From a virus (taxonomy: Duplodnaviria; Heunggongvirae; Uroviricota; Caudoviricetes): DNA of 15,507 bases. The notes below the pieces were generated by a model, which was given only the letters and a program-made list of their open reading frames with translations, was not told where the DNA came from and ran no database searches. A program made the position numbers and the translations under genes. The stretch lies in IMG/VR virus record IMGVR_UViG_2563366806_000001, positions 1 to 15,507 of that record. One strand, given 5' to 3'. Below, in pieces: positions 779 to 15,507 of this stretch. Position 1 is the first letter of the stretch. Every line of letters begins with the position of its first letter.

Positions 779-795
779 TTTGCTCTAATAAATTT
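779..795 (+). promoter_or_regulatory. C1-repressor operator-like site upstream of kilA
   Basis: TTTGCTCTAATAAATTT matches the recalled P1 C1 operator consensus ATTGCTCTAATAAATTT at 16/17 positions, about 70 bp upstream of the kilA ATG. Confidence 0.55.
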
Positions 796-864
796 CGTTT
801 TCTAAGTGCAAAGAATCACCATTTCGAGCTGGTGATTGAAGGTTGATGCAAATTTGGAGAAAAA

Positions 865-1665: not shown

Positions 1666-1694
1666 CAGACGTAGTAAGAACCACCAGCATTGTA

Positions 1695-2540: not shown

Positions 2541-2666
2541 TAGATTGCTCTAATCTGGAGTCACCTGGCGTTTTCAGTATGGATTTTCTTTGGCGCGGTC
2601 TGGCCATTAGGGATCATGTTTGCTGCAACGTTTCTTCTGATGTGGGTATTCACCCTTCCAGGTGAT

Positions 2667-2707
2667 TTCTATAGAAAAAAAGCCAGACATTGATACAATC
2701 GCTGCGG
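2667..2707 (+). promoter_or_regulatory. putative hok/mok promoter and mRNA 5' end
   Basis: -10-like TACAAT at 2694-2699. Predicted transcript 5' end GGTGCTTGAGG (2707-2717) resembles hok-family mRNA 5' ends. Confidence 0.35.
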
Positions 2708-2761
2708 GTGCTTGAGGCTATCTGCTTCAGGCATTACCCGAAAAGCAGATAGAAGAAAGCC

Positions 2762-2827
2762 CCAGATAACATTACGCGTCCTGCAAGACGCTTAACATTA
2801 ATCTGAGGCCATATCTATGCTTAGCAT
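2762..2827 (-). ncRNA. sok: candidate Sok-like antisense RNA (antitoxin); ends approximate
   Basis: Minus-strand promoter: -35 TTGACC (complement of 2856-2861), 16-bp spacer, -10 GCTAAT (complement of 2834-2839). The transcript would be antisense to the mok SD and start (ATG 2817). Weak hairpin GCGTC/GACGC around 2777-2792. Confidence 0.35.
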
Positions 2828-3023
2828 ACGTAGATTAGCCTCTTACCGACCAAAAGGTCAAGGAGAAGCAGGCTATGAAGCAGCAAAAAGCGATGTTAAT
2901 CGCTCTGATCGTCATCTGTTTAACCGTCATAGTGACGGCACTGGTAACGAGAAAAGACCTCTGCGAGGTACGAATCCGAACCGGCCAGACGGAGGTCACT
3001 GTCTTCACAGCCTACGAATCTGA
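2817..3023 (+). CDS. mok: Mok-like leader ORF overlapping hok in a different frame, 68 codons
   Basis: SD GAGG 2805-2808, ATG 2817, TGA 3021-3023 (7 nt before the hok stop). Nested arrangement is typical of hok/mok/sok loci. Confidence 0.5.
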   Translation: MLSIRRLASYRPKGQGEAGYEAAKSDVNRSDRHLFNRHSDGTGNEKRPLRGTNPNRPDGGHCLHSLRI

Positions 3024-3030
3024 AAGGTAA
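2875..3030 (+). CDS. hok: Hok/Gef-family type I toxin, 51 aa
   Basis: SD AAGGAG 2860-2865, ATG 2875, TAA 3028-3030. Hand translation: MKQQKAMLIALIVICLTVIVTALVTRKDLCEVRIRTGQTEVTVFTAYESER. Single hydrophobic helix plus the conserved RKDLCE..R.G..E..F.AYE tail of Hok/Gef/RelF proteins (closest to HokD/HokC as recalled). Below the ORF-track size cut-off. Confidence 0.85.
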   Translation: MKQQKAMLIALIVICLTVIVTALVTRKDLCEVRIRTGQTEVTVFTAYESER

Positions 3031-3042
3031 GAGACCTGGCGG

Positions 3043-3053
3043 GGAGAGATCCC
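3043..3053. repeat. IS186 target-site duplication, left copy
   Basis: GGAGAGATCCC, identical to 4392-4402. Confidence 0.75.
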
Positions 3054-4391
3054 ATAAGCGCTAACTTAAGGGTTGAACCATCTGAAGAATGCGACGCCTC
3101 GGTGCCTCGTTAAGACGATGCCTCGCGTTCTTCAATTGCGTTTTGTAGGCTGTCAGGGATACTGTCCCACGAATGGCCACCTGTAAGCTCCAGATGACCA
3201 TTTTTGTTATTCTCCACAACGAGTTAGTTCTTCTTTTCGGATCCGGCACTTCTGGGGGGGAAATCCAGCGATGGCTGGATTATGTCGTCAATTAAAAATG
3301 CGGCGAGTAGATTAGCAAATATCCACGCTTTCGCGAGTTCAGGTTCCTTTGCACGCAAAGCATCCAGGTGCAGCAAACTTTTGAGCCGCTTAAAAGCCAG
3401 TTCAATTTGCCATCGCAGACGGTAACAATCAGCCACTTGCTCTGCTGAATATTCATCTTCCGGTAATGATGTTAGCAATAGCACATGGCCCGCTGCTTCC
3501 AGCGTTTCCGCCTGAACTACTCGTCCTTTTCGACGATTCTCGCTGAGCAGTCGGGTTTTACTGATTAATGCTTTTTCGGGAGGAAGTGATACGGCAATGA
3601 GACGTGCCGGAAAGGGAGCTCCGGCTTTTTTATTACCTGAATTGCCTATCATTACAGTGGTTTCACCGTTCTTACCGCAATCCAGCCCGCGCAGAAAACC
3701 CATCATGTCAAAGCGCATTCCTTCTGCAGTTAACCAGCGCAATCCTCGCCAGTGAACCCGGACGATATAATCAGCTTCTCCAAAAGCAAGTGAGCGGATA
3801 CATTCGGGACGCGAACCGAATCCCCGGTCAGCAATGCGTATCTCGTCTGCCGTTTGCGCAAATCGGTCCAGCCGTTCAGCGTCTCTGCTGTCGGTTAGCT
3901 CAAAATCAGTGAACTGACAGGTATGAGGATCATATCCCATATGTAGTCGCCATTCAGCGCTGCCGCCCCCGGGCGCACTGATTGCTGTTCCATCGACAAG
4001 ACGCAATCTCTTTCCGCTTGTACAACCCGTAACTGCGGCGCGTACAGCAAGTGTTTGTGCGGCAAGTATGCCAAACCAGTCGGCGGCATTCCGCAGCCGC
4101 TTCAGGAGAGCCACGTCAGATAATGTTGCAACGTCATGGAGCTGAGCCCATGCAGTGACTTCACGTAATGACATCCCCCCGGGGCCGTAAGCCAGCCCCA
4201 GACGTAGCAGAGTTGCAGCATCACGAATTTCGCGGCGGCGGGTTAGAGCCCCGGCATTACGTGCCGAAGTATCCAGTTCTTCGGGCTTACCAATATGGGC
4301 CAGAATTGCTGACCAGTTATCGTGAGAGTAATTCATCGGCACGTTAAATCATATCAGGCGTAATACCACAACCCTTAAGTTAGCGCTTATG
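3054..4391 (-). mobile_element. IS186 insertion sequence (IS4 family), complete, 1338 bp
   Basis: Perfect 23-bp terminal inverted repeats CATAAGCGCTAACTTAAGGGTTG at 3054-3076 and (complement) 4369-4391; single transposase ORF; flanked by an 11-bp direct repeat. Confidence 0.9.
3224..4336 (-). CDS. insL: IS186 transposase, 370 aa from ATG 4336 (ORF track extends to GTG 4342)
   Basis: Protein MNYSHDNWSAILAHIGKPEELD...YRLRWQIELAFKRLK... recognised as IS186 InsL; fills the element between its inverted repeats. Confidence 0.9.
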   Translation of the reverse strand: MNYSHDNWSAILAHIGKPEELDTSARNAGALTRRREIRDAATLLRLGLAYGPGGMSLREVTAWAQLHDVATLSDVALLKRLRNAADWFGILAAQTLAVRAAVTGCTSGKRLRLVDGTAISAPGGGSAEWRLHMGYDPHTCQFTDFELTDSRDAERLDRFAQTADEIRIADRGFGSRPECIRSLAFGEADYIVRVHWRGLRWLTAEGMRFDMMGFLRGLDCGKNGETTVMIGNSGNKKAGAPFPARLIAVSLPPEKALISKTRLLSENRRKGRVVQAETLEAAGHVLLLTSLPEDEYSAEQVADCYRLRWQIELAFKRLKSLLHLDALRAKEPELAKAWIFANLLAAFLIDDIIQPSLDFPPRSAGSEKKN

Positions 4392-4402
4392 GGAGAGATC
4401 CC
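4392..4402. repeat. IS186 target-site duplication, right copy
   Basis: GGAGAGATCCC, identical to 3043-3053. Confidence 0.75.
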
Positions 4403-4426
4403 CGCCACTCTTCGTGTGTCAGGTAT

Positions 4427-4438
4427 CCTCAATGCACC
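4427..4438 (+). promoter_or_regulatory. displaced hok mRNA 3' fold-back (fbi-like) element
   Basis: CCTCAATGCACC is near-complementary to the predicted hok mRNA 5' end GGTGCTTGAGG (2707-2717). Now separated from the hok body by IS186. Confidence 0.35.
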
Positions 4439-4452
4439 CTTTCCTCTCCAAA

Positions 4453-4478
4453 TAAAAAAGCTCCCGAAGGAGCTTTAA
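4453..4478 (-). terminator. rho-independent terminator ending the minus-strand late operon
   Basis: Stem AGCTCC (4459-4464) / GGAGCT (4469-4474), loop CGAA. Plus-strand A-run 4454-4458 gives the U-tract for minus-strand transcripts; a short T-run on the plus side makes it weakly bidirectional. Confidence 0.6.
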
Positions 4479-4495
4479 AATACAAGGGATAACTC

Positions 4496-5005
4496 TTAAT
4501 CCCACTCAATCCAGTTGTAGACGATACGAAGTGACGGGCGCACAGCGGCAGTCACATCTTCGGTACTAAAGTCGATTGCATCACTGTAGATTTTGCAGTC
4601 CAACATTTCAATTGTTGTAGCAGCTTTTGTCACAGCGTTAACCCCGGAAGATTTGGATTCAGGGGTCGCAGCCATCGTGATATCAACATAGTCCTTCGCC
4701 GCAATGCGATCTTTAATGAACTGAAGAATATCGCCTTCGATAGTCTCCACGCACTGGACCTGGATTTCCCCAGAGTTTCGAATTGGACCGTGCTGGTTGA
4801 ACTTCACACCATTCGGACCATAGTCCTCCACATCCTCGCGGGTCATTTCAGGAATTTGCGACGTGCGAACCAGTACGCTGATATCTTCATGGCCTGCAAA
4901 AGTGAGCTGGAATTCAGAAGATACCAGTCGTTCGCCTTTGGCCGCGTTGGCAGTATAGCGGCCCTTAATAAATTTACGGTTTCCCTTAGTGTTATTGTGC
5001 CCCAT
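4496..5005 (-). CDS. late structural protein, possibly tail-tube-like, 169 aa
   Basis: Last gene of the co-directional late operon, downstream of the sheath gene and directly before the terminator. Size and aromatic C-terminus (RIVYNWIEWD) are reminiscent of contractile-tail tube proteins; assignment from memory, unverified. Confidence 0.4.
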   Translation of the reverse strand: MGHNNTKGNRKFIKGRYTANAAKGERLVSSEFQLTFAGHEDISVLVRTSQIPEMTREDVEDYGPNGVKFNQHGPIRNSGEIQVQCVETIEGDILQFIKDRIAAKDYVDITMAATPESKSSGVNAVTKAATTIEMLDCKIYSDAIDFSTEDVTAAVRPSLRIVYNWIEWD

Positions 5006-5016
5006 ATAAAATCCTT

Positions 5017-5598
5017 TTACTGGAACGCCCGAACAATATCGGAGCTGTTATATATCGAAGAACCAGTCAACTGGAGGTTGACGGTGTTTTTCAGGAAATG
5101 CCCATTGCTGTCCCTGGGCGCATCGAGATCGAAACTTATGTCCTGGATAGCGACATCAATGATGTTGATCCGGCGACCAATGTTTAGCGTCACACGCTCC
5201 GGGATTCGACCACCAATACTGGCATCTTTAAGTTCCGGGCTAATCATCGCTGACAATGCGGCGATAGCTCCTGAAACCTCCGTGAATGGGTCAAACAAAG
5301 CGATGAAAGTTACTGGCAGCGTGAAAGTCGGCGGTGTTCCCCCTTCCCAAACCATTAAGCTGTTCCAACGGGCAACCGACGTTGTTTCAGTACCAACCTG
5401 CGCAAAACCACTGAAGGCACCAGCAACAGATCCCATGGACATACCGGTAAACGGCGCTTCCCAATTCTGGGCCATGTTCATTGCCGCTCCCTGGCTGATA
5501 TATCCGGTAACCTGGTACTGAGAGTTCGTTAAAGTAACTTTCAGATATGGCGATACACCGTCAGCCTGGCTGTAAACCCCATAAGGTATAGGTGCCAT
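5017..5598 (-). CDS. late-operon protein of unknown function, 193 aa
   Basis: ATG start; 11-bp gap to the next gene; co-directional with structural genes. No recognisable motif. Confidence 0.4.
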   Translation of the reverse strand: MAPIPYGVYSQADGVSPYLKVTLTNSQYQVTGYISQGAAMNMAQNWEAPFTGMSMGSVAGAFSGFAQVGTETTSVARWNSLMVWEGGTPPTFTLPVTFIALFDPFTEVSGAIAALSAMISPELKDASIGGRIPERVTLNIGRRINIIDVAIQDISFDLDAPRDSNGHFLKNTVNLQLTGSSIYNSSDIVRAFQ

Positions 5599-5633
5599 TC
5601 AAGTTAAAGGCCGGAGTTCTCCGGCCTCCTCCT

Positions 5634-6449
5634 TTAGCCGAGGCGCTTACGGCGCAGTTTCATTGACTTTTTGCGGGCCAGTTTTGCCGCGCCGGTCTGG
5701 GCTTTACGACGCGCTTTTTTCAGCGCCGATTTTTGAGCCGCAGTCAGACGTTTTTTACGCAGGCGTTTACGGATGAGTTTGATCTCACCGTTACGAACAA
5801 CCTTCTTAAATGCTTCAGTCAGCATTTCATCAGAAGTGCCAGCAACAACAAACGCCGCTTCCAGTTCGTCACGGTCGTCGCTATCTAAACCAGCGATAGA
5901 GGCACCAACATCAGCAGCTGCGTCGTCGTCTTCATCGTCAGCCAGTGCTTCGATCAGGTCATCATCTACACCGCATGCTGCGAGGAAGTCAGCAACATTT
6001 GCCCATGCTTCGTTATAGGCATCGTCCTGTTCTTCTGTAACTTCGGAGTCGTCGTCATCAGAGATACCAGCGATAGCCTGAACGAAACCATCAAGGGAGT
6101 CGAAAGTCAGATCACCGCTATCAGCCCAGGCGAAAACGGCGTCGGCTGCATCACTCAACGCATTCTGCATAGCACTTCGATTTGCAGCTTCCAGAATCAT
6201 CTGGTGCGCCTGTTCGACGGTCCATTCTTTACCGTCTTTCCCTTCCAGGATTTGCTCAGGAGCCGTGGCAGATGGAGCGTTATCGTTAGTCTGTGCCGCC
6301 GGTTCCGGATTATTATTAATAACCGGATCTGTTGTCGGTTCGGCGCTTGCTCGGGCAGACTCCATCAACTGCACAGGATCAGAGTTCAAAGCGAAACGAG
6401 ACAGTCCATTCCCCAAAAATGCCCCGGATTGAAAAAAGTTTTTGCTCAT
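5634..6449 (-). CDS. charge-segregated late-operon protein, 271 aa (acidic core, Lys/Arg-rich C-terminal tail)
   Basis: ATG 6449, 9 nt after the sheath stop. Central Asp/Glu-rich tracts (DDDDSEVTEEQDD, ADDEDDDAAAD, DSDDRDELE); last ~50 residues almost all K/R (KLIRKRLRKKRL...RRKRLG). Confidence 0.45.
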   Translation of the reverse strand: MSKNFFQSGAFLGNGLSRFALNSDPVQLMESARASAEPTTDPVINNNPEPAAQTNDNAPSATAPEQILEGKDGKEWTVEQAHQMILEAANRSAMQNALSDAADAVFAWADSGDLTFDSLDGFVQAIAGISDDDDSEVTEEQDDAYNEAWANVADFLAACGVDDDLIEALADDEDDDAAADVGASIAGLDSDDRDELEAAFVVAGTSDEMLTEAFKKVVRNGEIKLIRKRLRKKRLTAAQKSALKKARRKAQTGAAKLARKKSMKLRRKRLG

Positions 6450-6458
6450 TGTATTTCC

Positions 6459-8048
6459 TTACTTAATAAGCAGCGGTACGCCCTGGATACGACGGGCTAC
6501 GCCAGTCGGGCAGCAGGCCCAGACTACTTCCCATTTATCGAATTCCGCCTGCGTAACTTTCAGCACATACGGTTCTGTACCGTCAGCATCAGGATCACGA
6601 GGAGCCACCAGAGCGCCGGAGGCGACAAAGCGATCCAAAAGTTTGGTCATCCCTTTAGTCAGGCCAGACTCAGTAATGCCGTCCGGGTTATGCTTCATCT
6701 GTCGGGCTAACTGGACAAAGAAACGGCTGATTGCGTTCATCAGGGATGGGACGTGCTGGAAATGCAGATAGTTGTCCTGCGTGCAGCAAGTTAAAGCATC
6801 ATCGATGATCATCTGGCCCGAAGTACCTACAGATACTTTATTGAGTCGGCCCTTGACCATAGCTTCTTCGTCCGGGGTGTCTTCAGGATACAGCGGCTGA
6901 AGTGATGCACGAGCAATGACGGCACGTTCTTCACCAGCCGGTGAGTAATGCCAACCGCCGACATCGGAGTTTTTCTTGACGCCACGAGCTTTCGCCGCAT
7001 ACGCCGCGCCAGACAGACCGAAGACCACGCGGGATTGGGTCCATTTGTCTTTGCAGGAGAACGGGAAATGATAGACAGCACAGCTTACATAATCGGTACC
7101 AAGTAAACCGGTATCTTCAACAGCAGAGATCGCTTCCGTGTACGTCAATGTCGGTTTGACATCAAAGAAGCCATCAATCAAGCGATCAGAACAGATATTA
7201 CCTAACGCAGTGATCGCCGCATTGTCATAGCAACCCAGGCCGAGAACAGCGGTGTACATGTACGGCGCATTGTTCAGCACTTTCACCGCACGCAGGTAAG
7301 CAGCAGTGGAAATGTTCGACTGATCGCCGTTGGTACCGCCAGTGAACGCCAGCGATTTTTTATTTGTTACTTTCGCCGTCGAAATCAGCTCTTCATTAAC
7401 AACCGCGCGCAGATATTTAGAACGGGCTTCCAGAGCCGTAGGCAGATAACACAAGCGGCCCATGTCATCTTTCGCTTCTTCCGCCAAAGACACAGTGTGT
7501 GTCTCCAGGGTCGTTACCACACCGAGCGAAGTCGTCTGGGTCAGTTTTAAGAGGAAGCGTTCATTACCCGCGCTGTCCGCTGTTGCCGTTTCGATGGTTA
7601 ACTCACGGGTAGGAGAAATACACGGATCACCATCATCAACGTAGATAGCAAAGGCTTCGCCGCTATCAAGTTCAATTTCAGAACCGTATGGCAACGCACT
7701 GTAAGCCGGTTCGCCTGATTCATCGAACATAATAATCGGGAACTTCGCATCATCCGGAACAGCACGGACAACATAACCAGACGTTTGCTGAATAGCTTCG
7801 TACACATGGCGAATTGGTTCGAACTGTGAGCCGGAGGACGGCTTCAGCGGTTCGCCGAGAACATCTTCGTAATTGGACTCAGTAACCGCAAGAACAGTAA
7901 ACGGCTTGCCACGCGCAAATACGCCAATACCTGCCCACAAGCTGCTATTTAATACAACACCGGTAGATAACGTCGCATCGGCATTGATCGGGCTAACAGC
8001 GACACCGGATGCATTACCTAATGACTGTTGAATTGAATATTGAGACAT
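6459..8048 (-). CDS. contractile tail sheath protein, 529 aa
   Basis: N-terminal ...VTESNYEDVLGEP and C-terminal ...GGWHYSPAGEERAVI motifs resemble conserved sheath signatures (T4 gp18 ...TFGQP / ...TWMSPAGYNRGQI, recalled). Follows the putative head gene as P1 gene 22 follows 23. Confidence 0.6.
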   Translation of the reverse strand: MSQYSIQQSLGNASGVAVSPINADATLSTGVVLNSSLWAGIGVFARGKPFTVLAVTESNYEDVLGEPLKPSSGSQFEPIRHVYEAIQQTSGYVVRAVPDDAKFPIIMFDESGEPAYSALPYGSEIELDSGEAFAIYVDDGDPCISPTRELTIETATADSAGNERFLLKLTQTTSLGVVTTLETHTVSLAEEAKDDMGRLCYLPTALEARSKYLRAVVNEELISTAKVTNKKSLAFTGGTNGDQSNISTAAYLRAVKVLNNAPYMYTAVLGLGCYDNAAITALGNICSDRLIDGFFDVKPTLTYTEAISAVEDTGLLGTDYVSCAVYHFPFSCKDKWTQSRVVFGLSGAAYAAKARGVKKNSDVGGWHYSPAGEERAVIARASLQPLYPEDTPDEEAMVKGRLNKVSVGTSGQMIIDDALTCCTQDNYLHFQHVPSLMNAISRFFVQLARQMKHNPDGITESGLTKGMTKLLDRFVASGALVAPRDPDADGTEPYVLKVTQAEFDKWEVVWACCPTGVARRIQGVPLLIK

Positions 8049-8107
8049 AACTTTCCCTGTTATGCGCCCCGCACGGGGCGCTATGTTAAACGGAGAACTT
8101 CCCCTGA

Positions 8108-9814
8108 TTACTCAGAGTCACCGGCATCAATTGTGTCGCCGCTTATAAAGTTAAGCCCGCCTTTTTTGGCCATTGTCAGCGTTACACGAGTGAAGTAATC
8201 AGCGCCGTTGCGTGGGTGCATATCGTTGATAGCCGAACCCCACAGCGTGGTACGGTTGACCAGCGCCGGAGTGGTCGGATGCTGGAACGGGATGGCCGGG
8301 ACAGCATCACCAGTCACGAAGCCTGCTTTACCCGGATTTTCATCACGGACGTAGCACAGCACATCCATCGAGCTGAACTGAATGTTCTCTGTCGTTAAGT
8401 TCTTACAAATACCAGCAGGTACTTCGTACACTTTCACGTTACCGAACAGGGTACCGATGTAGTGAACATACGGAGTCTGGATATAGTCTTCGGCTGGCTG
8501 GAAGAAATCCTTCGGCAACTGTTTGAAGAAAGATGCTGCATCAGCACCAGCAAACATCCCCATCGCACCAGAAGATTTAACGCGCTCAATAATGTCGCGA
8601 TATACAGTCTGGAATTTGCCACGAATGATGGTTGCCCATACATCAAAGGACTGGTTAACCGGCAGAGCGATGTCAAAGGTGTCGGTCGCAAGAGTACGCC
8701 AGATCATGATGCGAAGACGCAGCATATCCTGTTCATGAGACAGGTATTCCTTCAGGGTGCGGAACTGTAGGGAACCCAGGTCCAGACCAAATTCACGCTG
8801 TGCTTCATACGCCGCCTGTACCGTGTGCTCAGCCGCGATAACGAACTGACTTGGGGGCAGGGTGTATTTCTTCATTTCGTGGTTGATCAGCGGGATCAGC
8901 TCAGGAGCGGCTTCAATATTGATTTCCGTCTCAATTGCGATCTCAGTGCCTTTATCCGGCGCTTTGGAGAACGACAGGGCAATCTGACCAATGTTGTAGT
9001 TCAGAGAGCAGGTAACAGTGATTTGCTCACCAGCAGCATTAGTAAACGAGTGAAGTAGGCTGCCGGAACCGTTATCAACAACAGACTTAATACGGTTAAC
9101 GTAGATGTTAGTGCGACCTTTTCGGATTGGTACATTCTGGCCTTCGAAGTCTTCCATCTTGAAGGTTGCGGTTTTGCTGGTGCCATCGGAGCTTGCCACC
9201 AGCACATAGCGGCGACGTAACTGGCTGTACACACCGACGGATTGCATGTCCAGAACATCACCAGCAGCATAAGAACCAAAAGATGAACCTGCCACGTTAA
9301 AGACTTCATAGATGTCGGACTGGTCACGCGTAACCGGAATGAAGGTACACGCATCAGCGGTAGCTGCCCCCAACTGAACAGGCAGGATCATCGCGAGGAA
9401 TAAAGGCAGACGCATAACACCGTCAGAAACGCTCATCATCTCTGCTGCGACGGATTCCAGCATCGCTTTATTAGTGGCATCCATGCTATTGCGGGTGGAC
9501 TCAATCAGGCAGTTTTCCAGCGTCTGGTGGCAGGAGGCCAGAATTTCCGGACGCGGCATAGATTTATGTGCTGCGGCGTAGTCAGCCAGTGCACTTGCCC
9601 ACGCTGTAGCGATTTGAGCGGTGGCATTATCAGAGATACCCGCAAAAACCGGGTCTTTACGTGCAGCTTCAAGGATAGATGCGGCACGCGCGGCATCATC
9701 TTTAATGAATTGGTTATCAGTACCGAACTGCGCAGTGCTTGCCCAGCCAAGCACAGCTTTAGAGCGTTTTGCGATATCTGCAATACGATTCTGGTATTCG
9801 CGTAAGTTACTCAA
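8108..9814 (-). CDS. putative major head protein precursor (P1 gene 23-like), ~568 aa
   Basis: First gene after parB/parS, same strand. ORF track starts at TTG 9835, but TTG 9814 has a good SD (AAGGAAG, complement of 9821-9827, 6-nt spacer); no in-frame ATG for ~90 codons. Alanine-rich helical N-terminal ~110 aa is consistent with a cleaved propeptide. Confidence 0.45.
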   Translation of the reverse strand: MSNLREYQNRIADIAKRSKAVLGWASTAQFGTDNQFIKDDAARAASILEAARKDPVFAGISDNATAQIATAWASALADYAAAHKSMPRPEILASCHQTLENCLIESTRNSMDATNKAMLESVAAEMMSVSDGVMRLPLFLAMILPVQLGAATADACTFIPVTRDQSDIYEVFNVAGSSFGSYAAGDVLDMQSVGVYSQLRRRYVLVASSDGTSKTATFKMEDFEGQNVPIRKGRTNIYVNRIKSVVDNGSGSLLHSFTNAAGEQITVTCSLNYNIGQIALSFSKAPDKGTEIAIETEINIEAAPELIPLINHEMKKYTLPPSQFVIAAEHTVQAAYEAQREFGLDLGSLQFRTLKEYLSHEQDMLRLRIMIWRTLATDTFDIALPVNQSFDVWATIIRGKFQTVYRDIIERVKSSGAMGMFAGADAASFFKQLPKDFFQPAEDYIQTPYVHYIGTLFGNVKVYEVPAGICKNLTTENIQFSSMDVLCYVRDENPGKAGFVTGDAVPAIPFQHPTTPALVNRTTLWGSAINDMHPRNGADYFTRVTLTMAKKGGLNFISGDTIDAGDSE

Positions 9815-9959
9815 TTTACTCTTCCTTAAACACAAGGCACTTGTGTGAATCCCTTTTCGGAAGAGATTTTATTGAAAATCACTTGTTGACTTTCTCGCGA
9901 AAAGTAATTTTTTAAATTTTTTGTGCGGGGAAGTGGACGGTGAATGCAGGCGTTAAATC

Positions 9960-10030
9960 GTGGGAATTTCAGTCTGAAATTCTCCTAAAAAACACATGCA
10001 AATCATAATGTTAGTAATGAAATTGGTGCG
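9960..10030. other. parS-like partition (centromere) site downstream of parB
   Basis: 19-bp palindrome GAATTTCAG-T-CTGAAATTC (9964-9982) built from inverted ATTTCAG heptamers (cf. P1 ParB box A ATTTCAC); IHF-consensus-like AATCATAATGTTA (10001-10013); further heptamer TGAAATT (10018-10024). Confidence 0.45.
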
Positions 10031-10078
10031 GGACATTTTAGGAAGGGGAGGGGCTAACACCACCTCCCACCAGCGGGA

Positions 10079-11044
10079 TTATTCCCCAGCAGACATTTTC
10101 CCAATGATTTTTTTTATTGCTTCGTCAATTTCAGTTTGCACTTCAGACGGGAGTCTGGAGAACTCGTAGGCGACAACCCGTTTTTTCGGATCGGACTTCT
10201 TTCGAGCATATTGGCGACGGTCAGAGAAGTCTCGCAGCTTCTCAACCACCACAGATTTAACCGGCGCGGGCTTCAGGCTTTTGCTTTCCGCTTTGAAGAT
10301 AGCCAGTATCTTCGCTTTATCCTCTTTCGCGCCCTCAGTCTCTGCAATTCGTTCGCGCACCGTATCAACCAGCTCTTCAATAGGCACGCTTTTAGCGTTG
10401 GCATCCTCGGAGATCTGGAGCAGTAACTGGTAATCTGGCAGGGCGAGATCGCTGGCAACAGGGAAGACAGCAATCATCTCATCCGGCACCGCTGCCGCCT
10501 GGAACGCGCGCGTAACTTTAGCCTTTGAAATGTTCTCAGCGCGGGCGATCTCTTCTTTGGTCATGCTCTTACCATACATAACCTCGAAGCGTTTACCCAG
10601 TTCGCGCAGGGTGTGTTCGCGGGCTGTCTGGATATCAATGGCCAGCTGGCGTGCATCCGCCAGGCTGATCTCATCTTTCGTCACCAGAATCTCAAATTTC
10701 GTTTCATTGAAGATACACGCAGCGCGGCGACGTGATCCGTCCAATACCTCAATGCGCTCCCCAACCATACGACCGATAGCCGGGAAGAACTGTTGCAATT
10801 TAATGGTGCGGGAAATATCGCTTACCGACTCAGGGGTGAGCAGAGACTGATCGCGGCCGTTAACTGCCGGGTCAACGAACGTGCGCGACTCAATCTCACC
10901 ACTCAGCACAACGGTAAGCAAAAATTTAGCCTGGCGGCCAGATTTTAGGGTAAAGATTTTGGTGCCTTCACTGCCTTCAAGCATGCGAGCAAACTCGGAG
11001 CTATTCTTGCCCAGCACTCGTCCACGGGAAACTATTTTTTTCAT
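10079..11044 (-). CDS. parB: ParB partition protein (P1 ParB-like), 321 aa
   Basis: Overlaps the parA stop by 4 bp (ATGA). Protein recognisably similar to P1 ParB (e.g. FDRRQYARKK... C-terminus, central HTH region SKAKVTRAFQAAAVPDE). Confidence 0.9.
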   Translation of the reverse strand: MKKIVSRGRVLGKNSSEFARMLEGSEGTKIFTLKSGRQAKFLLTVVLSGEIESRTFVDPAVNGRDQSLLTPESVSDISRTIKLQQFFPAIGRMVGERIEVLDGSRRRAACIFNETKFEILVTKDEISLADARQLAIDIQTAREHTLRELGKRFEVMYGKSMTKEEIARAENISKAKVTRAFQAAAVPDEMIAVFPVASDLALPDYQLLLQISEDANAKSVPIEELVDTVRERIAETEGAKEDKAKILAIFKAESKSLKPAPVKSVVVEKLRDFSDRRQYARKKSDPKKRVVAYEFSRLPSEVQTEIDEAIKKIIGKMSAGE

Positions 11045-12252
11045 GCCGCCTCACCCCTAACAAACTCAATTCGATCAAACACAGCCTTAGTGAAACGCTC
11101 GGCCTCGGTTCGTGCCTTCTTCAGCGCCTCTGCACTGCCTGGATACGATTGCGGGTTGGCACTGATTACGGTGTCGAAAGACTCGCCGCATCGCTCAAAT
11201 CCATCCAGACGAGGCAGAGAAGAGTCCAGAATGTTGCTGGCGTAAACCTCACGCGCAAGGCTGTGTGATGTCTCGTGATCGCGCTTGCCGGTCATCTTCG
11301 ACATAAAACCAATGCTGGCGCTTAAACGCGGTTCTACGCCTTCCTCCTCCAGTTGCTCCAGCATTTCTGGCAGACGGGTGAGATATTTCAGTGTTGAGTG
11401 GAAGTCAACCTGGGCTGGTGGGGTAGGGGTAAGCAGCAAATCGCTGGCCGCCAGACCGTTGAGCAGGAACGGATCCAGGTGTGGACCGGTATCAATAAAG
11501 ATAAAGTCATAATCATCAGCAACACGATCAATGATATTGCGTCGAAGGATTTCGTACTGATTTTGTCCGGGAAGATGCTCTTCAACCAGCTCTTTCCATT
11601 GGCTGGCAACAAAGCCATCGTCGATAGAGGCTGGAATCACGTCTACGCCAGGAACGATGGTCGGACGAATCACCTCTTTGCGTAGCGTCTCCGCGTCCAA
11701 GTCGTTCAGCATCGCCTGCGCGGCGGTTTCCAGGATGGAACCAATACTGTGAGTATGGTCGAGGAACATTGTGCTGGATGCCTGAGGGTCAAGGTCAATT
11801 ACCAGAATGCGCAGATCGTGACGCAGTAAATCCTGATGCACACGCAGAGCGTGCGCCAACGTGACTGTGGAAACCGTTTTGGATACGCCACCCTTCAGGT
11901 TTACGACAAAAATAACGTAAGGCGATTTGTGAATGTCGCGATATTTTGGGATCTTACGGTGGGCATAGATATCAATGACGTTCTGGATGGTCAGCGCGTA
12001 CTGTTCAACGTTACCGACCTGTTTCTTGTTGAACTGGTACCCATCATCTTCCATCTCTTTGATGGCCTGCTCCACAATGCGGCGGCTCAGCTTCGGCAAC
12101 TTTGCCACAGCGTTACGAGTGAACGTCTGATAATACTCGGTCTGATTGAACTCTTTGCGCTGATCTTCAATATCCTGACTCATGGCCTTAAGTAATGCGC
12201 TTGCACGAAGAGCTATGGTGCCGACACCGCCGTAATCGCGTTTCATCATCAT
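11041..12252 (-). CDS. parA: ParA partition ATPase (P1-type), 403 aa in track; third ATG at 12246 is the best-spaced start
   Basis: Walker A KGGVSKT; long N-terminal regulatory extension typical of P1/F-type ParA; SD AAGGAG (complement of 12253-12258); strong resemblance to P1 ParA (FVVNLKGGVSKTVSTV..., ...LPRLDGFERCGESFDTVISANP...). Confidence 0.9.
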   Translation of the reverse strand: MMMKRDYGGVGTIALRASALLKAMSQDIEDQRKEFNQTEYYQTFTRNAVAKLPKLSRRIVEQAIKEMEDDGYQFNKKQVGNVEQYALTIQNVIDIYAHRKIPKYRDIHKSPYVIFVVNLKGGVSKTVSTVTLAHALRVHQDLLRHDLRILVIDLDPQASSTMFLDHTHSIGSILETAAQAMLNDLDAETLRKEVIRPTIVPGVDVIPASIDDGFVASQWKELVEEHLPGQNQYEILRRNIIDRVADDYDFIFIDTGPHLDPFLLNGLAASDLLLTPTPPAQVDFHSTLKYLTRLPEMLEQLEEEGVEPRLSASIGFMSKMTGKRDHETSHSLAREVYASNILDSSLPRLDGFERCGESFDTVISANPQSYPGSAEALKKARTEAERFTKAVFDRIEFVRGEAA

Positions 12253-12276
12253 CTCCTTATCATTTCGTATGAGTGA

Positions 12277-12338
12277 ATTGTACGTTTGATTCTGCTACGT
12301 GCAACTTATTTTGATTCGTGCGTAAATTATTGCACGTA
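12277..12338 (-). promoter_or_regulatory. parA promoter with inverted-repeat operator
   Basis: Minus-strand -35 TTGCAC (complement of 12299-12304), 16-bp spacer, -10 TACAAT (complement of 12277-12282). Perfect 9-bp inverted repeat TACGTGCAA (12296-12304) / TTGCACGTA (12330-12338) overlaps the -35. Confidence 0.5.
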
Positions 12339-12362
12339 AAGAAATGGCGATGAGGCTATTAG

Positions 12363-12645
12363 ATGTGTGCTGGAGGGATGATGCAGGACCAGAATGTGCG
12401 ATAGAGGGAAGTCGCATTGAATTATGTGTTGTGGAGGGATCGCTGGTATCAAATATGTGCGCTGAAGGGAAAGATAGAAGATTAGATGTGCGCTGGAGGG
12501 AAACTTGGATGGTTAGATGTGTGCTGGAGGGAATGTCTGGGCAAACTGCGTGGCGCAACCCTCCAGCGCACACCAAAAACAGGAAAATGGGCAGGCATTC
12601 CCGGCAGCGCACATTTTTCAAATGCAGCTGCCCTCCAGCACACAC
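12363..12645. repeat. incA-like iteron array: nine RepA-binding repeats (6 direct, 3 inverted)
   Basis: ATGTGTGCTGGAGGGA-type cores starting at 12363, 12394, 12424, 12455, 12486, 12517; inverted copies at 12559-12573, 12599-12614, 12631-12645, the last abutting the repA stop. Confidence 0.85.
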
Positions 12646-13506
12646 TTATTCGGGAAGTTTCAGCTTTGGATTGCGAGAATGGACGATTACAAAACTTTCC
12701 CGGCCTTTCTTCTCAATTGAACAGTCGAGATAGCCAATTGTTTTAAGCTGTTCTATCGCTTTCTTAATGATACGGTTTTGCTCGCCAACAGCTGACTGCA
12801 AAGCCAGGCGCTCACGGATTCGCGCGAACGATAGCGGCAACGGGTTCTGCGGAAGGCTTTCGATGAAAGTGTAAATGGCTTGTGCAGCTTCTTTCTTCGG
12901 AAGGGCACGCAAGGCGTGGTGTTGCAACAGAACGCGATAATCAAGCTGGAACAGCTCCCAGAGCTTCGAATCGGCCTCCAGCTCTATCAGATCAAGGTCA
13001 GCATCAAAACGCCCGACCTTCAGCAGACCAGTCTGATAGCCGCCTTTAGCATCTTTTCCGCGCTTAAAAGCGATACCCTTGTTACGCAAGCGTCCAAGTG
13101 ATTCATGAATGGTTAAACGCAGTTTCGCATCCAGACGTTTTGAGGGGAAACCACAGGCTTTAGCGAACTCCTGAAACGATAACTGGATGGTGTTTGAAGA
13201 CAAGCCGTATTTGCTGAACGCGTAGATGACACCGATCCACGTTTTGAAATCAGTATCCATATCGAGTCGAGGACCGGTGATTTTAATATCATCGTAACCC
13301 TCGGCTTTAGCTATCTCCAGCTGGGAAAACGCTTTGGTGGCATCAATCTCTTTACTTTCTCCTTTGCTCTTTGATGGCTTCGGAACGAATACCCCCAAGC
13401 GCATCAACGCTACAGGCTGCACAGTGTTGTTTGAATTAACTGTTAGTTCTTTTGCCTTACTTTCAATGTCTGCGTAAAGAATATCGGAGATAAATGATTG
13501 ATTCAT
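12646..13506 (-). CDS. repA: RepA plasmid replication initiator (P1 RepA-like), 286 aa
   Basis: ATG 13506, TAA 12646-12648; flanked by iteron arrays on both sides; protein matches recalled P1 RepA in length and sequence. Confidence 0.9.
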   Translation of the reverse strand: MNQSFISDILYADIESKAKELTVNSNNTVQPVALMRLGVFVPKPSKSKGESKEIDATKAFSQLEIAKAEGYDDIKITGPRLDMDTDFKTWIGVIYAFSKYGLSSNTIQLSFQEFAKACGFPSKRLDAKLRLTIHESLGRLRNKGIAFKRGKDAKGGYQTGLLKVGRFDADLDLIELEADSKLWELFQLDYRVLLQHHALRALPKKEAAQAIYTFIESLPQNPLPLSFARIRERLALQSAVGEQNRIIKKAIEQLKTIGYLDCSIEKKGRESFVIVHSRNPKLKLPE

Positions 13507-13519
13507 ATTACTTTTTCCG

Positions 13520-13783
13520 AATTATGTGGATAGTTTTTATAAGTGGTGATAACTACCCAGGCTTTCCCGTCAGCACACATCCTATATCCCGCCAGCACAC
13601 ATTAGCAACCCGTCAGCACACATTTTTATCCCTCCAGCACACATCGTTTTCCCTCCAGCACACATCGCGATACACTTCTAAGCCAGACGTGGCGCGGCCT
13701 GCAACGATCAGGGATCTATATGGATCTAATTGGGATCTGTATGGACCTAATTATTGGATCTACCCAGTGGATAATGTGGATAA
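13520..13783. other. oriR-like plasmid replication origin
   Basis: DnaA-box-like TGTGGATAG (13525-13533); five iterons; five GATC sites (13706, 13713, 13723, 13734, 13757) in short A/T-rich repeats; tandem DnaA boxes AGTGGATAA (13766-13774) and TGTGGATAA (13775-13783). Confidence 0.8.
13565..13665. repeat. incC-like iteron array: five repeats at ~21-bp spacing
   Basis: (T/A)CCC(G/T)(T/C)CAGCACACAT at 13565, 13587, 13608, 13629, 13650, same family as the incA repeats; lies in the repA promoter/origin region. Confidence 0.85.
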
Positions 13784-13785
13784 GT

Positions 13786-13810
13786 GAAAAACCGGCCAAC
13801 ATAGCCGGTT
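13786..13810 (-). terminator. terminator after the Cys/His-rich ORF, shielding the origin
   Basis: Stem AACCGGC (13790-13796) / GCCGGTT (13804-13810), 7-nt loop, followed on the minus strand by a T-run (complement of plus-strand A-run ending 13789). Confidence 0.5.
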
Positions 13811-13823
13811 GGAAGGAAGGGTA

Positions 13824-14210
13824 TTATTCTACGCTTTCGATAAGAAGACCATGTTCATAACATTTAAGCTCATCGCCTTCGTACAGGAATTGGTATCCAA
13901 TACCACCATTTTCATGGACATTAGGGAATAACTCATAACTCACTGAAGAGCAAATCACACCAATGCAGCGATCAACGCCTTCTCGTTCTTCAGTGCTGAA
14001 AAAATCCTCTTCGGTAAGGACACATTGCTCATCAGCATAGGTCGGAAATACATGCTCGATGCAATCCGGGTGTTTTAAACCAAGCTGATCGGCAAGCTCG
14101 AAAGCATGACGGTATTGTTCAGATCCTGGCTTGCCAACAGTGATGTGCTCAATTTTGTAGATTGAAGTTGCTTTGTTGATAGTTTGCTTTACTGTTACTT
14201 TATCAGACAT
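13824..14210 (-). CDS. hypothetical Cys/His-rich protein, 128 aa
   Basis: ATG 14210, TAA 13824-13826. Motifs HPDCIEH, CVLTEE, CIGVIC, CYEH suggest metal binding. Occupies the position of P1 upfA as recalled. Confidence 0.55.
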   Translation of the reverse strand: MSDKVTVKQTINKATSIYKIEHITVGKPGSEQYRHAFELADQLGLKHPDCIEHVFPTYADEQCVLTEEDFFSTEEREGVDRCIGVICSSVSYELFPNVHENGGIGYQFLYEGDELKCYEHGLLIESVE

Positions 14211-14221
14211 AAAAATCCCTT

Positions 14222-14554
14222 TTAGTTACCTCTGATAGCGCGGTTGTAATCATTAACGTTGCGATTCTTCCTGTTAATCCCCATCAGCATCGTTTCTGTA
14301 TCGAGGATATACGCTGGCAGATCATCAAAATATTCACTGCTAAACTCTGGCATCCTGCACATAAATGCACTTTTGGGGGCAGGGTGGTTAACCTTTGTCG
14401 GCGTCGGCGTTAAATTCGCTGATCGACTGCCGGAGCAACCGCTGAGTGTCAGCAGGAATGCGCTGGCGAACATTACCCGCCGCAACCAGTTGTTTCTGAA
14501 CTTCAGCTTTTCGTTCCATTTGCCTGTCAGCATATTTGGCTTGTTCTGATTCAT
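14222..14554 (-). CDS. lipoprotein, candidate o-spanin (Rz1-like), 110-aa precursor
   Basis: SD AGGAAG (complement of 14561-14566) 6 nt before ATG 14554. Signal peptide with lipobox LSGC; Pro-rich mature N-terminus (TPTPTKVNHPAP) with a further Cys. 5' 167 nt lie inside the preceding ORF in another frame. Confidence 0.55.
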   Translation of the reverse strand: MNQNKPNMLTGKWNEKLKFRNNWLRRVMFASAFLLTLSGCSGSRSANLTPTPTKVNHPAPKSAFMCRMPEFSSEYFDDLPAYILDTETMLMGINRKNRNVNDYNRAIRGN

Positions 14555-14810
14555 TTTTCACTTCCTGGCTGTGAAAATGTTGCTCTGCTTTGTTCATCGT
14601 CTCAATGGTCTGGTTAAGATCCATTATTGACTTATCACGTTCCTTAACAGCCTGATCAAGACTGCCAATTTTCTCCATGGCTTGCTTTAGCTGATGACGT
14701 TCCCATGCAAACCCAGCACCAACAAGTGCGCAAATCAGAACAAGAACACCAGTAGCAGCAAGTTTCTCCTTCAAAGACAAAGCTGTTTTTAACGTAGAAA
14801 AGAATGACAT
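14388..14810 (-). CDS. type II membrane protein, candidate i-spanin (Rz-like), 140 aa from ATG 14810 (ORF track starts at TTG 14837)
   Basis: SD GGAGG (complement of 14816-14820) 5 nt before ATG 14810. One N-terminal TM helix (LAATGVLVLICALVGAGFAW) then a charged helical domain. Its 3' end overlaps the lipoprotein gene. Confidence 0.55.
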   Translation of the reverse strand: MSFFSTLKTALSLKEKLAATGVLVLICALVGAGFAWERHQLKQAMEKIGSLDQAVKERDKSIMDLNQTIETMNKAEQHFHSQEVKNESEQAKYADRQMERKAEVQKQLVAAGNVRQRIPADTQRLLRQSISEFNADADKG

Positions 14811-14849
14811 GTCTTCCTCCTGAAGAAAAATTATCAATGAAGTCCTTTG

Positions 14850-15386
14850 TTACTGTGCCGCTTTGTTTAATTCATCAAGAACAGAATCAGGAACCAAAGC
14901 GGCAACTGCGCTGGCTGTGCTGACCTTATTTGCTGATGCTTCCGCAAGCGCGGTACCGATAGCATGGTTATAAGCAGTTATGGCTACGTTGGCGCTTTCA
15001 TTCGCTCGTTCATACTGCTGTTGTAACGCAGTTGTGGGCGTTGTTGTCTGGTTGAAAACAACCCCAAACTGTTCAGTTGCTACTTTCAGAGATTCAATTT
15101 GCTCTTCTGTTAGTGCTGGTGGGGGAGTGGCAGTGCCGCCGCCTGAACCAGAGCCTGACGAGCTTCCTGAGCCAGTATTAAGGGTCTGGTTAATCTCCCC
15201 CATAGCAGCGACTAAACTTGATGTATTAAGCGCGTTAACAGCGTCCTCAAGCGATTTAGTAATATTCACATCACCAATGGCAATAGAGATCGGCAGTTCT
15301 GAAACTTCTCGCTCATTAGCACGGCAGTAAACATCCCAACCAATATCGAGTTGAAGCAGCATTGACAGATCTGCATAACCAGCCAA
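14850..15386 (-). CDS. hypothetical protein with Gly/Ser-rich linker, 178 aa (start uncertain)
   Basis: ORF-track start is TTG (complement of 15384-15386) with no convincing SD. Internal linker TGSGSSSGSGSGGGTATPPP separates two Ala-rich segments. Same-frame stop upstream at 15474-15476. Confidence 0.45.
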   Translation of the reverse strand: MAGYADLSMLLQLDIGWDVYCRANEREVSELPISIAIGDVNITKSLEDAVNALNTSSLVAAMGEINQTLNTGSGSSSGSGSGGGTATPPPALTEEQIESLKVATEQFGVVFNQTTTPTTALQQQYERANESANVAITAYNHAIGTALAEASANKVSTASAVAALVPDSVLDELNKAAQ

Positions 15387-15507
15387 CAGGTCCGCGTGCT
15401 TAGTTGCCAGTTCTCCAATGTTCGTTAAGTCGGTTGTGGTTGTTCTTATCGTTGAAACGGTGATGCTGCCAACTTACTGATTTAGTGTATGATGGTGTTT
15501 TTGAGGT

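Follow-up and report, generated by a model that had tools for sequence, protein, structure and literature searches.

The gene pair at positions 14222 to 14810, on the minus strand of the DNA analysed here (a stretch of 15,507 nucleotides, hereafter the window), very probably encodes the two-component spanin of a P1-like phage-plasmid in the overlapped arrangement, ppfA coding for the predicted i-spanin and mlp for the predicted o-spanin; the function is a prediction. The pair is the already catalogued ppfA/mlp of phage P1, and its recognition is thus a correct rediscovery and not a new finding. A preliminary description had reached the correct function from the raw sequence alone, and its reading of the pair as an overlapped i-spanin and o-spanin is supported by SpaninDB, by a study of P1 lysis (PMC9025707) and by existing Rz-like spanin annotations. 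The discovery value is small, as the pair has been listed as P1 spanins since 2007-2018. What interest remains lies in the fact that these are predicted spanins of a phage that ranks among the most widely used, also as a vector backbone, that mlp is still missed or truncated by gene callers in many records, and that the operon is expressed with late kinetics although no Lpa-type late promoter can be recognised.

A known P1 gene pair and its operon

Judged by its nucleotide identity to P1, P7, RCS47 and SJ46 (98.6-99.4%), the window is P1-like phage-plasmid DNA. An 801-bp stretch covering the pair is 98.6% identical to P1 at the nucleotide level, and the proteins share 98.6% (PpfA) and 97.3% (Mlp) identity with their P1 counterparts. 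The genes, their neighbours (upfB, upfA and repA), SD sequences, overlap and lipobox are the same as those of P1 ppfA (gp064) and mlp (gp063), which make up the family 'P1' in SpaninDB. Compared with the sequences deposited there, PpfA carries I45M and E128Q, and Mlp carries S7N, V32A and S108R; a further difference from P1 is that the operon is cut here by IS1 within upfB. SpaninDB (supplement of PMC6139136) assigns gp064 (PpfA) and gp063 (Mlp) to the architecture 'ovl', an overlapped two-component spanin, with a 36-residue N-terminal/TMD part in the i-spanin and with zero (gp064) and one (gp063) periplasmic Cys. Several GenBank/RefSeq records label matching features ppfA/mlp, Rz/Rz1 or 'Rz-like spanin'. 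The 2022 study of P1 lysis (PMC9025707) likewise treats ppfA and mlp as the P1 spanin genes, located in an operon apart from the remaining lysis genes, and describes their spanin function as experimentally unverified.

The preliminary description had proposed that a gene for a type II membrane protein overlaps a lipoprotein gene in a different frame, and the coordinates bear this out exactly. The ppfA gene (14810..14388, minus strand) runs from an ATG at 14810 to a stop codon at 14390-14388 and encodes 140 aa; mlp (14554..14222, minus strand) runs from an ATG at 14554 to a stop codon at 14224-14222 and encodes a lipoprotein precursor of 110 aa. Each start codon is preceded at 6 nt by an SD sequence, AGGAGG for ppfA and AGGAAG for mlp. 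The dual-coding overlap (14388..14554, minus strand) spans 167 nt and comprises PpfA residues 86-140 and Mlp residues 1-55, that is, the Mlp signal peptide and its first 15 mature residues. Since its ATG begins at the second position of a ppfA codon, mlp lies in the +1 frame.

The pair had also been correctly placed beside the plasmid replicon: upfA is the sole gene between mlp and repA (13506..12646). This last gene of the operon (13824..14210, minus strand, 128 aa) belongs to phrog_1453, of unknown function, and no library assigns it to a lysis gene; its relatives carry PF13876, and it is absent from one relative. Directly 3' of upfA, ahead of oriR, a consensus scan detected a terminator-like hairpin followed by a T-run (13790..13810, minus strand), which probably marks the end of the upfC-upfB-ppfA-mlp-upfA transcription unit. 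On the upstream side, upfB (14850..15458, minus strand) is truncated by IS1. In P1 this gene measures 846 nt; here its first 79 codons are gone, together with everything upstream, namely upfC and whichever promoter may precede it.

The predicted i-spanin and o-spanin

Residues 17-35 form the only hydrophobic segment of PpfA (mean Kyte-Doolittle value of 2.35 over 19 residues), which is preceded by a net charge of +2, and both hydropathy and charge agree with the one N-terminal TM and N-in/C-out topology that the spanin criteria of Summer 2007 and Kongari 2018 set for an i-spanin. Its periplasmic part comprises 104 residues, 35% of them charged, and lacks Cys. The AlphaFold2 model (mean pLDDT 70.6) consists of a helix at 13-110, a loop at 111-119 and a second helix at 120-137, in keeping with the mainly alpha-helical periplasmic domain of i-spanins, two helices joined by a linker, and with the single N-terminal TM and long charged periplasmic helix that had been read from the sequence. 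PpfA matches phrog_89, annotated 'Rz-like spanin' and also containing LysB of phage P2, at 1.1e-25. Direct comparisons with LysB are weak: BLASTP gives E 61, profile alignment against the single LysB sequence a probability of 1.3%, and family-to-family hhalign 23% over 42 columns of the TM region only. With the NCBIfam LysB model (TIGR03495) PpfA reaches 19.5 bits, below the cut-off of 92.75, and it lacks both the C-terminal Cys pair of LysB and its WY..LPDAVRRLH motif. Homology between PpfA and LysB is not established by these comparisons, and the match to phrog_89 may reflect the clustering of TM-plus-coiled-coil proteins in PHROG. As a Pfam scan of PpfA gave no match, no curated spanin model fits and the LysB score is weak, the i-spanin assignment of PpfA rests on topology, gene position and PHROG clustering. 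With the PpfA model as query, Foldseek returned no match in BFVD below E = 1.9, which is no surprise for one long helix. Just 36 matches to the PpfA family came out of an exhaustive HMM search across 1.84 billion representatives, so that the family is narrow; weak matches to long proteins (600-1,100 aa, in several stretches) were discarded as generic coiled-coil.

The lipoprotein features proposed for Mlp (an LSGC lipobox, a Pro-rich mature N-terminus and a free Cys) are all present. A basic n-region and the h-region VMFASAFLLTL precede the lipobox LSG|C, in which Cys40 (codon at 14435..14437, minus strand) is the predicted lipidation site and the first residue of a mature protein of 71 aa that begins with CSGS. 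The preliminary description had suggested a LipoP prediction, and SpaninDB lists one for the P1 counterpart, with cleavage at position 39. Mlp thus has the signal peptidase II lipobox of an o-spanin without Asp at +2; since this residue is Ser, sorting to the outer membrane is expected. The first 25 mature residues include 4 Pro and 7 Ser/Thr. The single further Cys, Cys27 of the mature protein and Cys66 in the numbering of the precursor, is invariant in eight aligned sequences (the window and seven relatives). With none in PpfA and one in Mlp, the pair resembles the 507 of 528 spanin systems in which either subunit has at least one periplasmic Cys (PMC6139136). Mlp matches phrog_30284 ('Rz-like spanin') at 1.4e-76 and phrog_456 at 4.2e-5, and its similarity to P2 LysC is detectable by BLASTP (37% identity over 68 aa, E 4e-8), by reciprocal PHROG matches and by hhalign of the mature domains only (probability 52%, E 1.4e-4), in which the second Cys is aligned. 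The NCBIfam model NF038368 (LysC/Rz1-like) gives Mlp 14.3 bits, below its cut-off of 27, and neither protein matches any Pfam family, Phage_lysis (Rz) and Rz1 included, at E <= 1. The signal peptide, at 39 aa, is unusually long, which counts against the spanin reading; for the P1 o-spanin SpaninDB records no PROSITE match and remarks 'Too long signal sequence'.

The distribution and evolution of the pair bear on whether mlp is a gene at all. The overlapped pair and an identical synteny (upfC-upfB-ppfA-mlp-upfA-repA) occur in six relatives at ~60% identity and one at ~30%; the +1 ORF is intact in each of them, and the 167-nt overlap in this frame is kept in all relatives examined. A chance ORF in and beyond ppfA could be suspected from the behaviour of gene callers, which often skip or truncate mlp: a fragment of 44-52 aa is called in Cronobacter phage JK004 and several assemblies, and PGAP rows omit it. 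Nevertheless, the mlp frame is intact in the window, in P1 and in seven relatives whose PpfA identity goes as low as ~30%, nine sequences in all. The start codon of mlp, the Cys of the lipobox, the second Cys and motifs near the C-terminus are conserved, as is a DDLPxYI...INRKN segment of Mlp. The first ATG is kept in all relatives, in two of which it is the only one, and the lipobox Cys occupies the same aligned position in seven of seven, two of them with the atypical lipobox LNAC/LNGC. In the six frames of the 15.5-kb window, moreover, Mlp is the sole ORF to pass a combined filter for n-region, h-region and lipobox. The selection analysis refutes the chance-ORF interpretation, which thereby becomes extremely improbable: dN/dS is 0.08-0.13 in the part of mlp outside ppfA and 0.16-0.27 in ppfA alone, and both frames are under purifying selection. 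Within the overlap, the ppfA frame has a dN/dS of 0.18-0.29 with dS depressed to 0.64-0.94 (against 1.5-2.2 outside), and the mlp frame reaches 1.65-2.5, a pattern that identifies the C-terminus of PpfA as the frame under constraint; of the Mlp signal peptide only the general properties are preserved. In 50,697 phage records, tblastn with PpfA and Mlp detected P1-like phages and JK004 only, with no homologue inside a classical lysis cassette; a word-indexed protein search recovered P1-like proteins of at least 59% identity only, viral-contig scans found no further sequences of the distant relatives P0084 and P0093, and a genome-contig scan found near-identical loci only.

Among known systems, the experimentally characterised prototype is Rz/Rz1 of phage lambda. 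The two systems share an inner-membrane protein of type II topology whose periplasmic domain is helical, a lipoprotein of the outer membrane that is rich in Pro and read in the +1 frame, and at least one periplasmic Cys free for a homodimer disulfide. The differences are several: Rz1 is wholly embedded in Rz whereas the P1 genes overlap, Rz has two periplasmic Cys and PpfA none, mature Rz1 is 40 aa long against the 71 aa of mature Mlp, the P1 pair is unlinked to a lysis cassette, and the Pfam searches revealed no sequence similarity. P2 LysB/LysC are closer in architecture, with 141/96 aa and a 146-nt overlap against 140/110 aa and 167 nt, and the non-lipid Cys of LysC aligns with that of Mlp. 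However, the relation of PpfA to LysB is unsupported by direct comparison, both P1 proteins stay under the NCBIfam cut-offs, and lysB/lysC directly follow holin Y, endolysin K and lysA, while the P1 pair has no adjacent holin or endolysin.

By analogy with lambda, PpfA would be inserted in the inner membrane N-in/C-out and extend a largely helical stalk of about 100 residues into the periplasm. Mlp would be exported, lipidated on Cys40 and, having Ser at +2, carried by Lol to the outer membrane, in whose inner leaflet it would probably form homodimers through its single, invariant periplasmic Cys. Its conserved C-terminal domain may then bind the conserved C-terminal helix of PpfA, so as to form a complex that bridges the periplasm through the murein meshwork. 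Once the holin LydA had triggered and the SAR-endolysin Lyz had degraded the murein, the complexes would be freed to collapse and could fuse the inner and outer membranes, which would clear the final obstacle to the exit of virions. The assembly of the complex, the disulfide-linked dimer, the fusion of the membranes and any effect on lysis are what this analogy would predict for the P1 proteins.

Late transcription and dispersed lysis genes

Spanin genes usually, though not obligatorily, adjoin a lysis cassette. The window contains neither holin nor endolysin, as the preliminary description had noted when it suggested that lysis genes might be split across the genome. This holds for P1, in whose genome lyz-lydD-lydE, lydA-lydB-lydC and ppfA-mlp occupy three separate sites (lyz at 20.3 kb, lydA/B at 30.4-31.2 kb and ppfA/mlp at 63.4-63.9 kb); the dispersal is a known peculiarity of the phage (PMC9025707). 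The position of the pair beside the replicon, with no holin or endolysin nearby, is explained by this dispersal over three unlinked operons.

The timing of transcription is that of late genes. In Table S1 of PMC8201110 the log fold change between 10 and 30 min rises from 5.57 to 11.25 for ppfA and from 4.15 to 10.53 for mlp, matching lyz (6.05 to 11.35), lydA (5.21 to 11.77), lydB (3.37 to 11.01) and the structural genes, unlike the early neighbours hrdC (9.40 to 11.98) and parA (9.46 to 11.46). LP23, LPlyz and LPdar served to build a P1 late-promoter motif. In the window this motif detected LP23 again, yet it found no Lpa-type promoter with at most one mismatch within ~1.3 kb upstream of the P1 ppfA operon; two mismatches gave one match, which lay on the opposite strand and was no more than expected by chance. 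A sigma-70 promoter scan of 13700-15507 stayed at background level. Two sigma-70 promoters have been predicted a short way upstream of ppfA in P1 (63984-64010 and 64200-64229); by arithmetic these correspond to 14852-14878 and 15068-15097 in the window, so that both are retained here.

A rival reading is that the pair forms an envelope module unrelated to lysis, for example in superinfection exclusion, receptor masking or lysogenic conversion, and that its service to the plasmid prophage keeps it beside the replicon. The distance of the pair from lyz and lydA/B, its place two genes from oriR/repA and the predicted sigma-70 promoters in lieu of an Lpa-type one are compatible with such a role. 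A CRISPRi screen of P1 (PMC10695390) scored both genes as non-essential: the efficiency of plating was 0.24/0.19 when mlp was knocked down and 1.3/1.2 when ppfA was; the effects of lyz and lydA were also weak in it. In PLSDB the pair occurs in 650 plasmids, about 150 more than P1 lyz (502), which implies that it persists in derivatives apparently devoid of the endolysin. The outcome of the screen, the missing Lpa-type promoter and this distribution also weigh against the spanin reading itself. The pair is also harmless on P1-based vectors, P1 57408-64090 being 100% identical to pPAC4. Nevertheless, spanins without an endolysin are expected to be harmless from the biology of lambda Rz/Rz1, and the surplus of plasmids is more simply explained by hitch-hiking with the replicon and partition region in IS-rearranged derivatives. 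The late kinetics, which differ from those of early and plasmid-maintenance neighbours, also speak against an envelope module, as do the +1 overlapped layout with a type II membrane protein, a spanin signature, and the resemblance of Mlp to the P2 o-spanin LysC, conserved Cys included. The scenario is improbable, and superinfection exclusion, which the preliminary description had raised as an alternative, finds no positive support; in published RNA-seq data the operon behaves as a late one. Alternatively, the spanin could have a second role in the plasmid state, independent of lysis (envelope remodelling, vesiculation or exclusion), or a redundant route through the outer membrane could make it dispensable. 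This idea draws on the PLSDB surplus, on the intact survival of the pair in IS-scrambled and cointegrate plasmids and on its non-essentiality in plating, and we give it very little credence.

IS1 and the state of the element

The copy described here sits in a rearranged context. The P1-like DNA spans 96-15458 with IS1 ends on both sides. The homology to P1 stops at 15458; PGAP annotates an identical junction as a pseudogene that lacks its N-terminus, beside an IS1 transposase. The same IS1::upfB junction is found in at least eight complete E. coli plasmids, one of which is an 83-kb, IS-riddled and scrambled P1 derivative, and an IS4-family (IS421-like) transposase gene (3224-4342) occupies the rlfA/rlfB stretch of P1. 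Most likely the element derives from P1 by degradation, and, since IS1 removed what lay further upstream in the operon, such a plasmid may carry the pair as a mere passenger. In that case, it would be a functionless relic in an IS1-rearranged plasmid without lytic growth, surviving through its linkage to repA/par. The flanking IS1 ends, the loss of 79 N-terminal codons of upfB and of all that preceded them, the recurrence of the junction and the IS4-family insertion make this a serious, if doubtful, possibility for the present copy. Against it, both ORFs are intact and nearly identical to those of P1, the region is 100% identical in many plasmids of ~90 kb, the normal size of P1, and the two predicted sigma-70 promoters 5' of ppfA have been retained.

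The overlapping ppfA and mlp genes

Both genes lie on the minus strand. The first, ppfA, extends from an ATG at 14810 to a stop codon at 14390-14388 (140 aa), and mlp from an ATG at 14554 to a stop codon at 14224-14222 (110 aa); AGGAGG and AGGAAG are respectively found 6 nt upstream of their start codons. They share 167 nt and, since mlp starts at a ppfA codon position 2, it is read in the +1 frame; the 3' overlap in different frames claimed for 14222-14810 was thus accurate to the nucleotide. PpfA has a single hydrophobic segment (residues 17-35), preceded by a net positive charge and followed by a periplasmic part of 104 residues which is 35% charged and devoid of Cys. Its AlphaFold2 model (15-sequence alignment, mean pLDDT 70.6) consists of a helix (13-110), a loop (111-119) and a second helix (120-137), in agreement with the type II membrane protein of the preliminary description. 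Mlp starts with a basic n-region, a hydrophobic h-region and the lipobox LSGC, whose Cys40 is encoded at 14437-14435. The mature protein (71 residues, N-terminus CSGS) contains one Cys besides that of the lipobox, and 4 Pro and 7 Ser/Thr among its first 25 residues, as expected from the lipoprotein with a Pro-rich mature N-terminus and a free Cys that had been proposed. As these features are found at the expected positions and mlp is the only one of all ATG-started ORFs in the six frames of the window to pass a simple signal-plus-lipobox filter, the original observation is confirmed in full.

The pair is already known as the predicted P1 spanin pair. The 801 bases around it are 98.6-99.4% identical to P1, P7, RCS47, SJ46 and other P1-like phages, in whose records the match covers ppfA and mlp under various labels (PpfA/Mlp, 'outer membrane lytic protein Rz / outer membrane lipoprotein Rz1' or 'Rz-like spanin'). 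Bednarek et al. 2022 (PMC9025707) describe the partly overlapping ppfA and mlp as the P1 spanin genes, whose operon is not linked to the rest of the lysis genes; according to the same paper, this assignment was made by Summer et al. from predicted features. [quoted passage not shown] 2018, PMC6139136), PpfA is the i-spanin (the transmembrane protein) and Mlp the o-spanin (the lipoprotein). [quoted passage not shown] Its curators remarked on the o-spanin 'Too long signal sequence' and 'LipoP server finds cleavage site at 39th position. No hit by Prosite'.

Selection and family relationships

The pair was compared with its homologues in Cronobacter phage JK004, five Salmonella/Klebsiella-type P1-like contigs (PpfA identity 59-63%) and one 94-kb P1-like viral contig (~30%). 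The gene order upfC-upfB-ppfA-(mlp)-upfA...repA is common to all of them, upfA being missing from one relative of ~60% identity (L087). The +1 ORF is intact in all relatives, begins where the first ATG of the window copy aligns and keeps the Cys position. Its lipobox is LSAC in five of them and LNAC or LNGC in two. The latter belong to the mlp homologues of L087 and of another relative of ~60% identity (L088), at ~4350, which have Asn at position -2 in an otherwise conserved ORF, a residue that the PROSITE lipoprotein pattern is not known to allow there. Two relatives have no ATG upstream of the lipobox other than this first one, which supports the long predicted Mlp signal peptide (39-40 residues) being real. 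Nei-Gojobori estimates of the relatives against the window sequence gave, outside the overlap, dN/dS values of 0.16-0.27 for ppfA (dS 1.5-2.2) and 0.08-0.13 for mlp, so both genes are under purifying selection. Within the overlap, dN/dS was 0.18-0.29 in the ppfA frame (dS 0.64-0.94) and 1.65-2.5 in the mlp frame. On these estimates, the constrained product of the overlap is the PpfA C-terminus, the Mlp signal peptide retaining its general character alone. The PpfA C-terminal motif IPxDTxxLLxxSIxxFNA is still present in ~30%-identical relatives, and Mlp has the invariant motifs AFMCxMP, DDLPxYI and INRKNxN; these are plausible candidates for the contact surfaces. The mlp gene is often mis-annotated in sequence records: gene callers systematically overlook it or reduce it to a fragment of 44-52 aa that lies beyond the ppfA stop, as in L002 (5458-5592), L086, L088, L089 and L090, and also in L094 and L095. 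The 46-aa phrog_15803 'lipoprotein' appears to be built from such shortened calls.

Neither protein matches Pfam, and the NCBIfam matches are all below threshold (LysB 19.5 bits versus a cut-off of 92.75; P2_Rz1 14.3 versus 27), which excludes the pair from the curated LysB, LysC, Rz and Rz1 families. Among PHROGs, PpfA matches phrog_89 (1.1e-25) and Mlp phrog_30284 (1.4e-76) and phrog_456 (4.2e-5), all three labelled 'Rz-like spanin'. LysB, the i-spanin of phage P2, is a strong member of phrog_89. Nevertheless, homology between PpfA and LysB is unsupported (BLASTP E 61; family-versus-family hhalign probability 23%, over the transmembrane region only), and PpfA lacks both the C-terminal Cys pair and the motif of LysB. 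An exhaustive HMM search of 1.84 billion proteins retrieved 36 PpfA representatives at E <= 1e-3. Together, the family, PHROG and HMM results indicate that PpfA forms a narrow family confined to P1-like elements. The P2 o-spanin LysC belongs to phrog_456 and reciprocally matches the P1 Mlp family. Mlp and LysC are 37% identical over 68 residues (pairwise E 4e-8); without their signal peptides, hhalign gave a probability of 52% (E 1.4e-4, 35% identity over 48 columns) with the non-lipid Cys aligned. Mlp is thus probably a distant relative of LysC.

Late expression and putative function

Expression timing was taken from Table S1 of Cech et al. 2021 (PMC8201110), which reports log fold changes 10 and 30 min after P1vir infection. 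The genes of the ppfA operon rose from 4.86 to 10.63 (upfC), 4.12 to 11.07 (upfB), 5.57 to 11.25 (ppfA), 4.15 to 10.53 (mlp) and 5.21 to 11.24 (upfA), and known late genes from 6.05 to 11.35 (lyz), 5.21 to 11.77 (lydA), 3.37 to 11.01 (lydB) and 5.44 to 12.07 (gene 23). The early or maintenance neighbours went from 9.40 to 11.98 (hrdC), 8.62 to 11.06 (uhr), 9.46 to 11.46 (parA) and 7.37 to 10.16 (repA). On these kinetics, upfC-upfB-ppfA-mlp-upfA follows the time course of a late operon, a timing that fits a role in lysis and argues against a role in the prophage state. A late-promoter motif, AAGTKAYTT-N4-TANNNT, was derived here from LP23, LPlyz and LPdar of P1. It has an exact match (AAGTGATTT TCAA TAAAAT) at 9866-9884 on the minus strand, upstream of gene 23, which corresponds to LP23 of P1. 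No such Lpa-type motif occurs, at up to 1 mismatch, in P1 60232-67032 (NC_005856), where the only annotated promoters are predicted sigma-70 ones; late kinetics without a recognisable Lpa box are odd. A G+C-rich, terminator-like hairpin followed by a T-run (13790-13810, minus strand), 14 nt past the upfA stop, probably ends the operon just ahead of oriR.

The SpaninDB 'ovl' entry, the published description of the P1 pair (PMC9025707), the selection on both genes and their late kinetics support the overlapped i-spanin/o-spanin reading, and spanin action is very likely the function for which the pair evolved. PpfA would be anchored N-in in the inner membrane. Mlp would be lipidated on Cys40 and delivered by Lol to the outer membrane, its single conserved Cys probably linking it into a dimer, and the C-terminal parts of both proteins would bind across the periplasm. 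Once the holin LydA triggers and the endolysin Lyz destroys the murein, the complexes would collapse and the inner and outer membranes fuse. Signals, architecture, selection and timing are documented for the pair itself; we infer the interaction, the disulfide and the membrane fusion from work on lambda Rz/Rz1 (Berry 2008, 2012; Rajaure 2015, as cited in PMC9025707). In a genome-wide CRISPRi screen of P1 (Piya et al. 2023, PMC10695390), mlp and ppfA were rated non-essential, with plating efficiencies of 0.24/0.19 and 1.3/1.2, respectively. Yet, since the effects on lyz (0.05/0.0035) and lydA (0.12/0.0024) in the same table are also modest, this result is not decisive.

Genomic context and distribution

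The window is collinear with P1 49.2-64.6 kb over 96/174-15458 and carries, in order, ant (3' part), kilA, repL, an IS4-family transposase gene, bplB, pmgG, 21, 22, 23, parB, parA, incA, repA, oriR, upfA, mlp, ppfA and upfB. As had been remarked, it contains neither holin nor endolysin, for which either dispersed lysis genes or another envelope role of the pair had been considered. The former holds for P1, whose lysis genes occupy three separate sites: lyz-lydD-lydE (~20 kb), lydA-lydB-lydC (~30-31 kb) and ppfA-mlp (~63.5 kb). The transposase gene (IS421-like, 3224-4342, minus strand, 372 aa) lies between repL and bplB and probably replaces or interrupts P1 rlfA/rlfB and pmgF; IS421 is named in the annotations of matching plasmids. 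Positions 1-95 correspond to an IS1 3' end, and 15459-15507 to the left end (left inverted repeat) of an IS1 in the same orientation, so 15.4 kb of P1-like DNA are bracketed by IS1 copies. The right-hand IS1 removes the first 79 codons of upfB, upfC and everything further upstream. The identical IS1::upfB junction (100% identity) recurs in no fewer than 8 complete E. coli plasmids, one of them an 83-kb IS-riddled P1 derivative in which PGAP marks upfB as a pseudogene. Because of this truncation and shared junction, the source element is probably a plasmid that derives from P1 and has been degraded. The ORFs of ppfA and mlp are both intact here, and two predicted sigma-70 promoters just upstream of ppfA are retained.

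The proximity to the plasmid replicon noted at the outset is genuine, the adjacency to repA being kept in all relatives examined, and nothing ties this position to replication. Megablast matched the 589-bp pair in 650 PLSDB plasmid records, versus 502 for P1 lyz and 374 for IncY repA; as it exceeds the latter, the pair must also occur with other replicon alleles. Mobilizable or conjugative plasmids account for 118 records of the pair versus 31 of lyz, which suggests that P1 remnants and cointegrates lacking the endolysin retain it. This surplus is most simply explained if, in derivatives that have undergone rearrangement, the pair hitch-hikes with the replicon and partition block. In L092, the P1-like relative most distant from the window, an additional 318-aa ORF (7226-8182) is inserted between upfA and repA.
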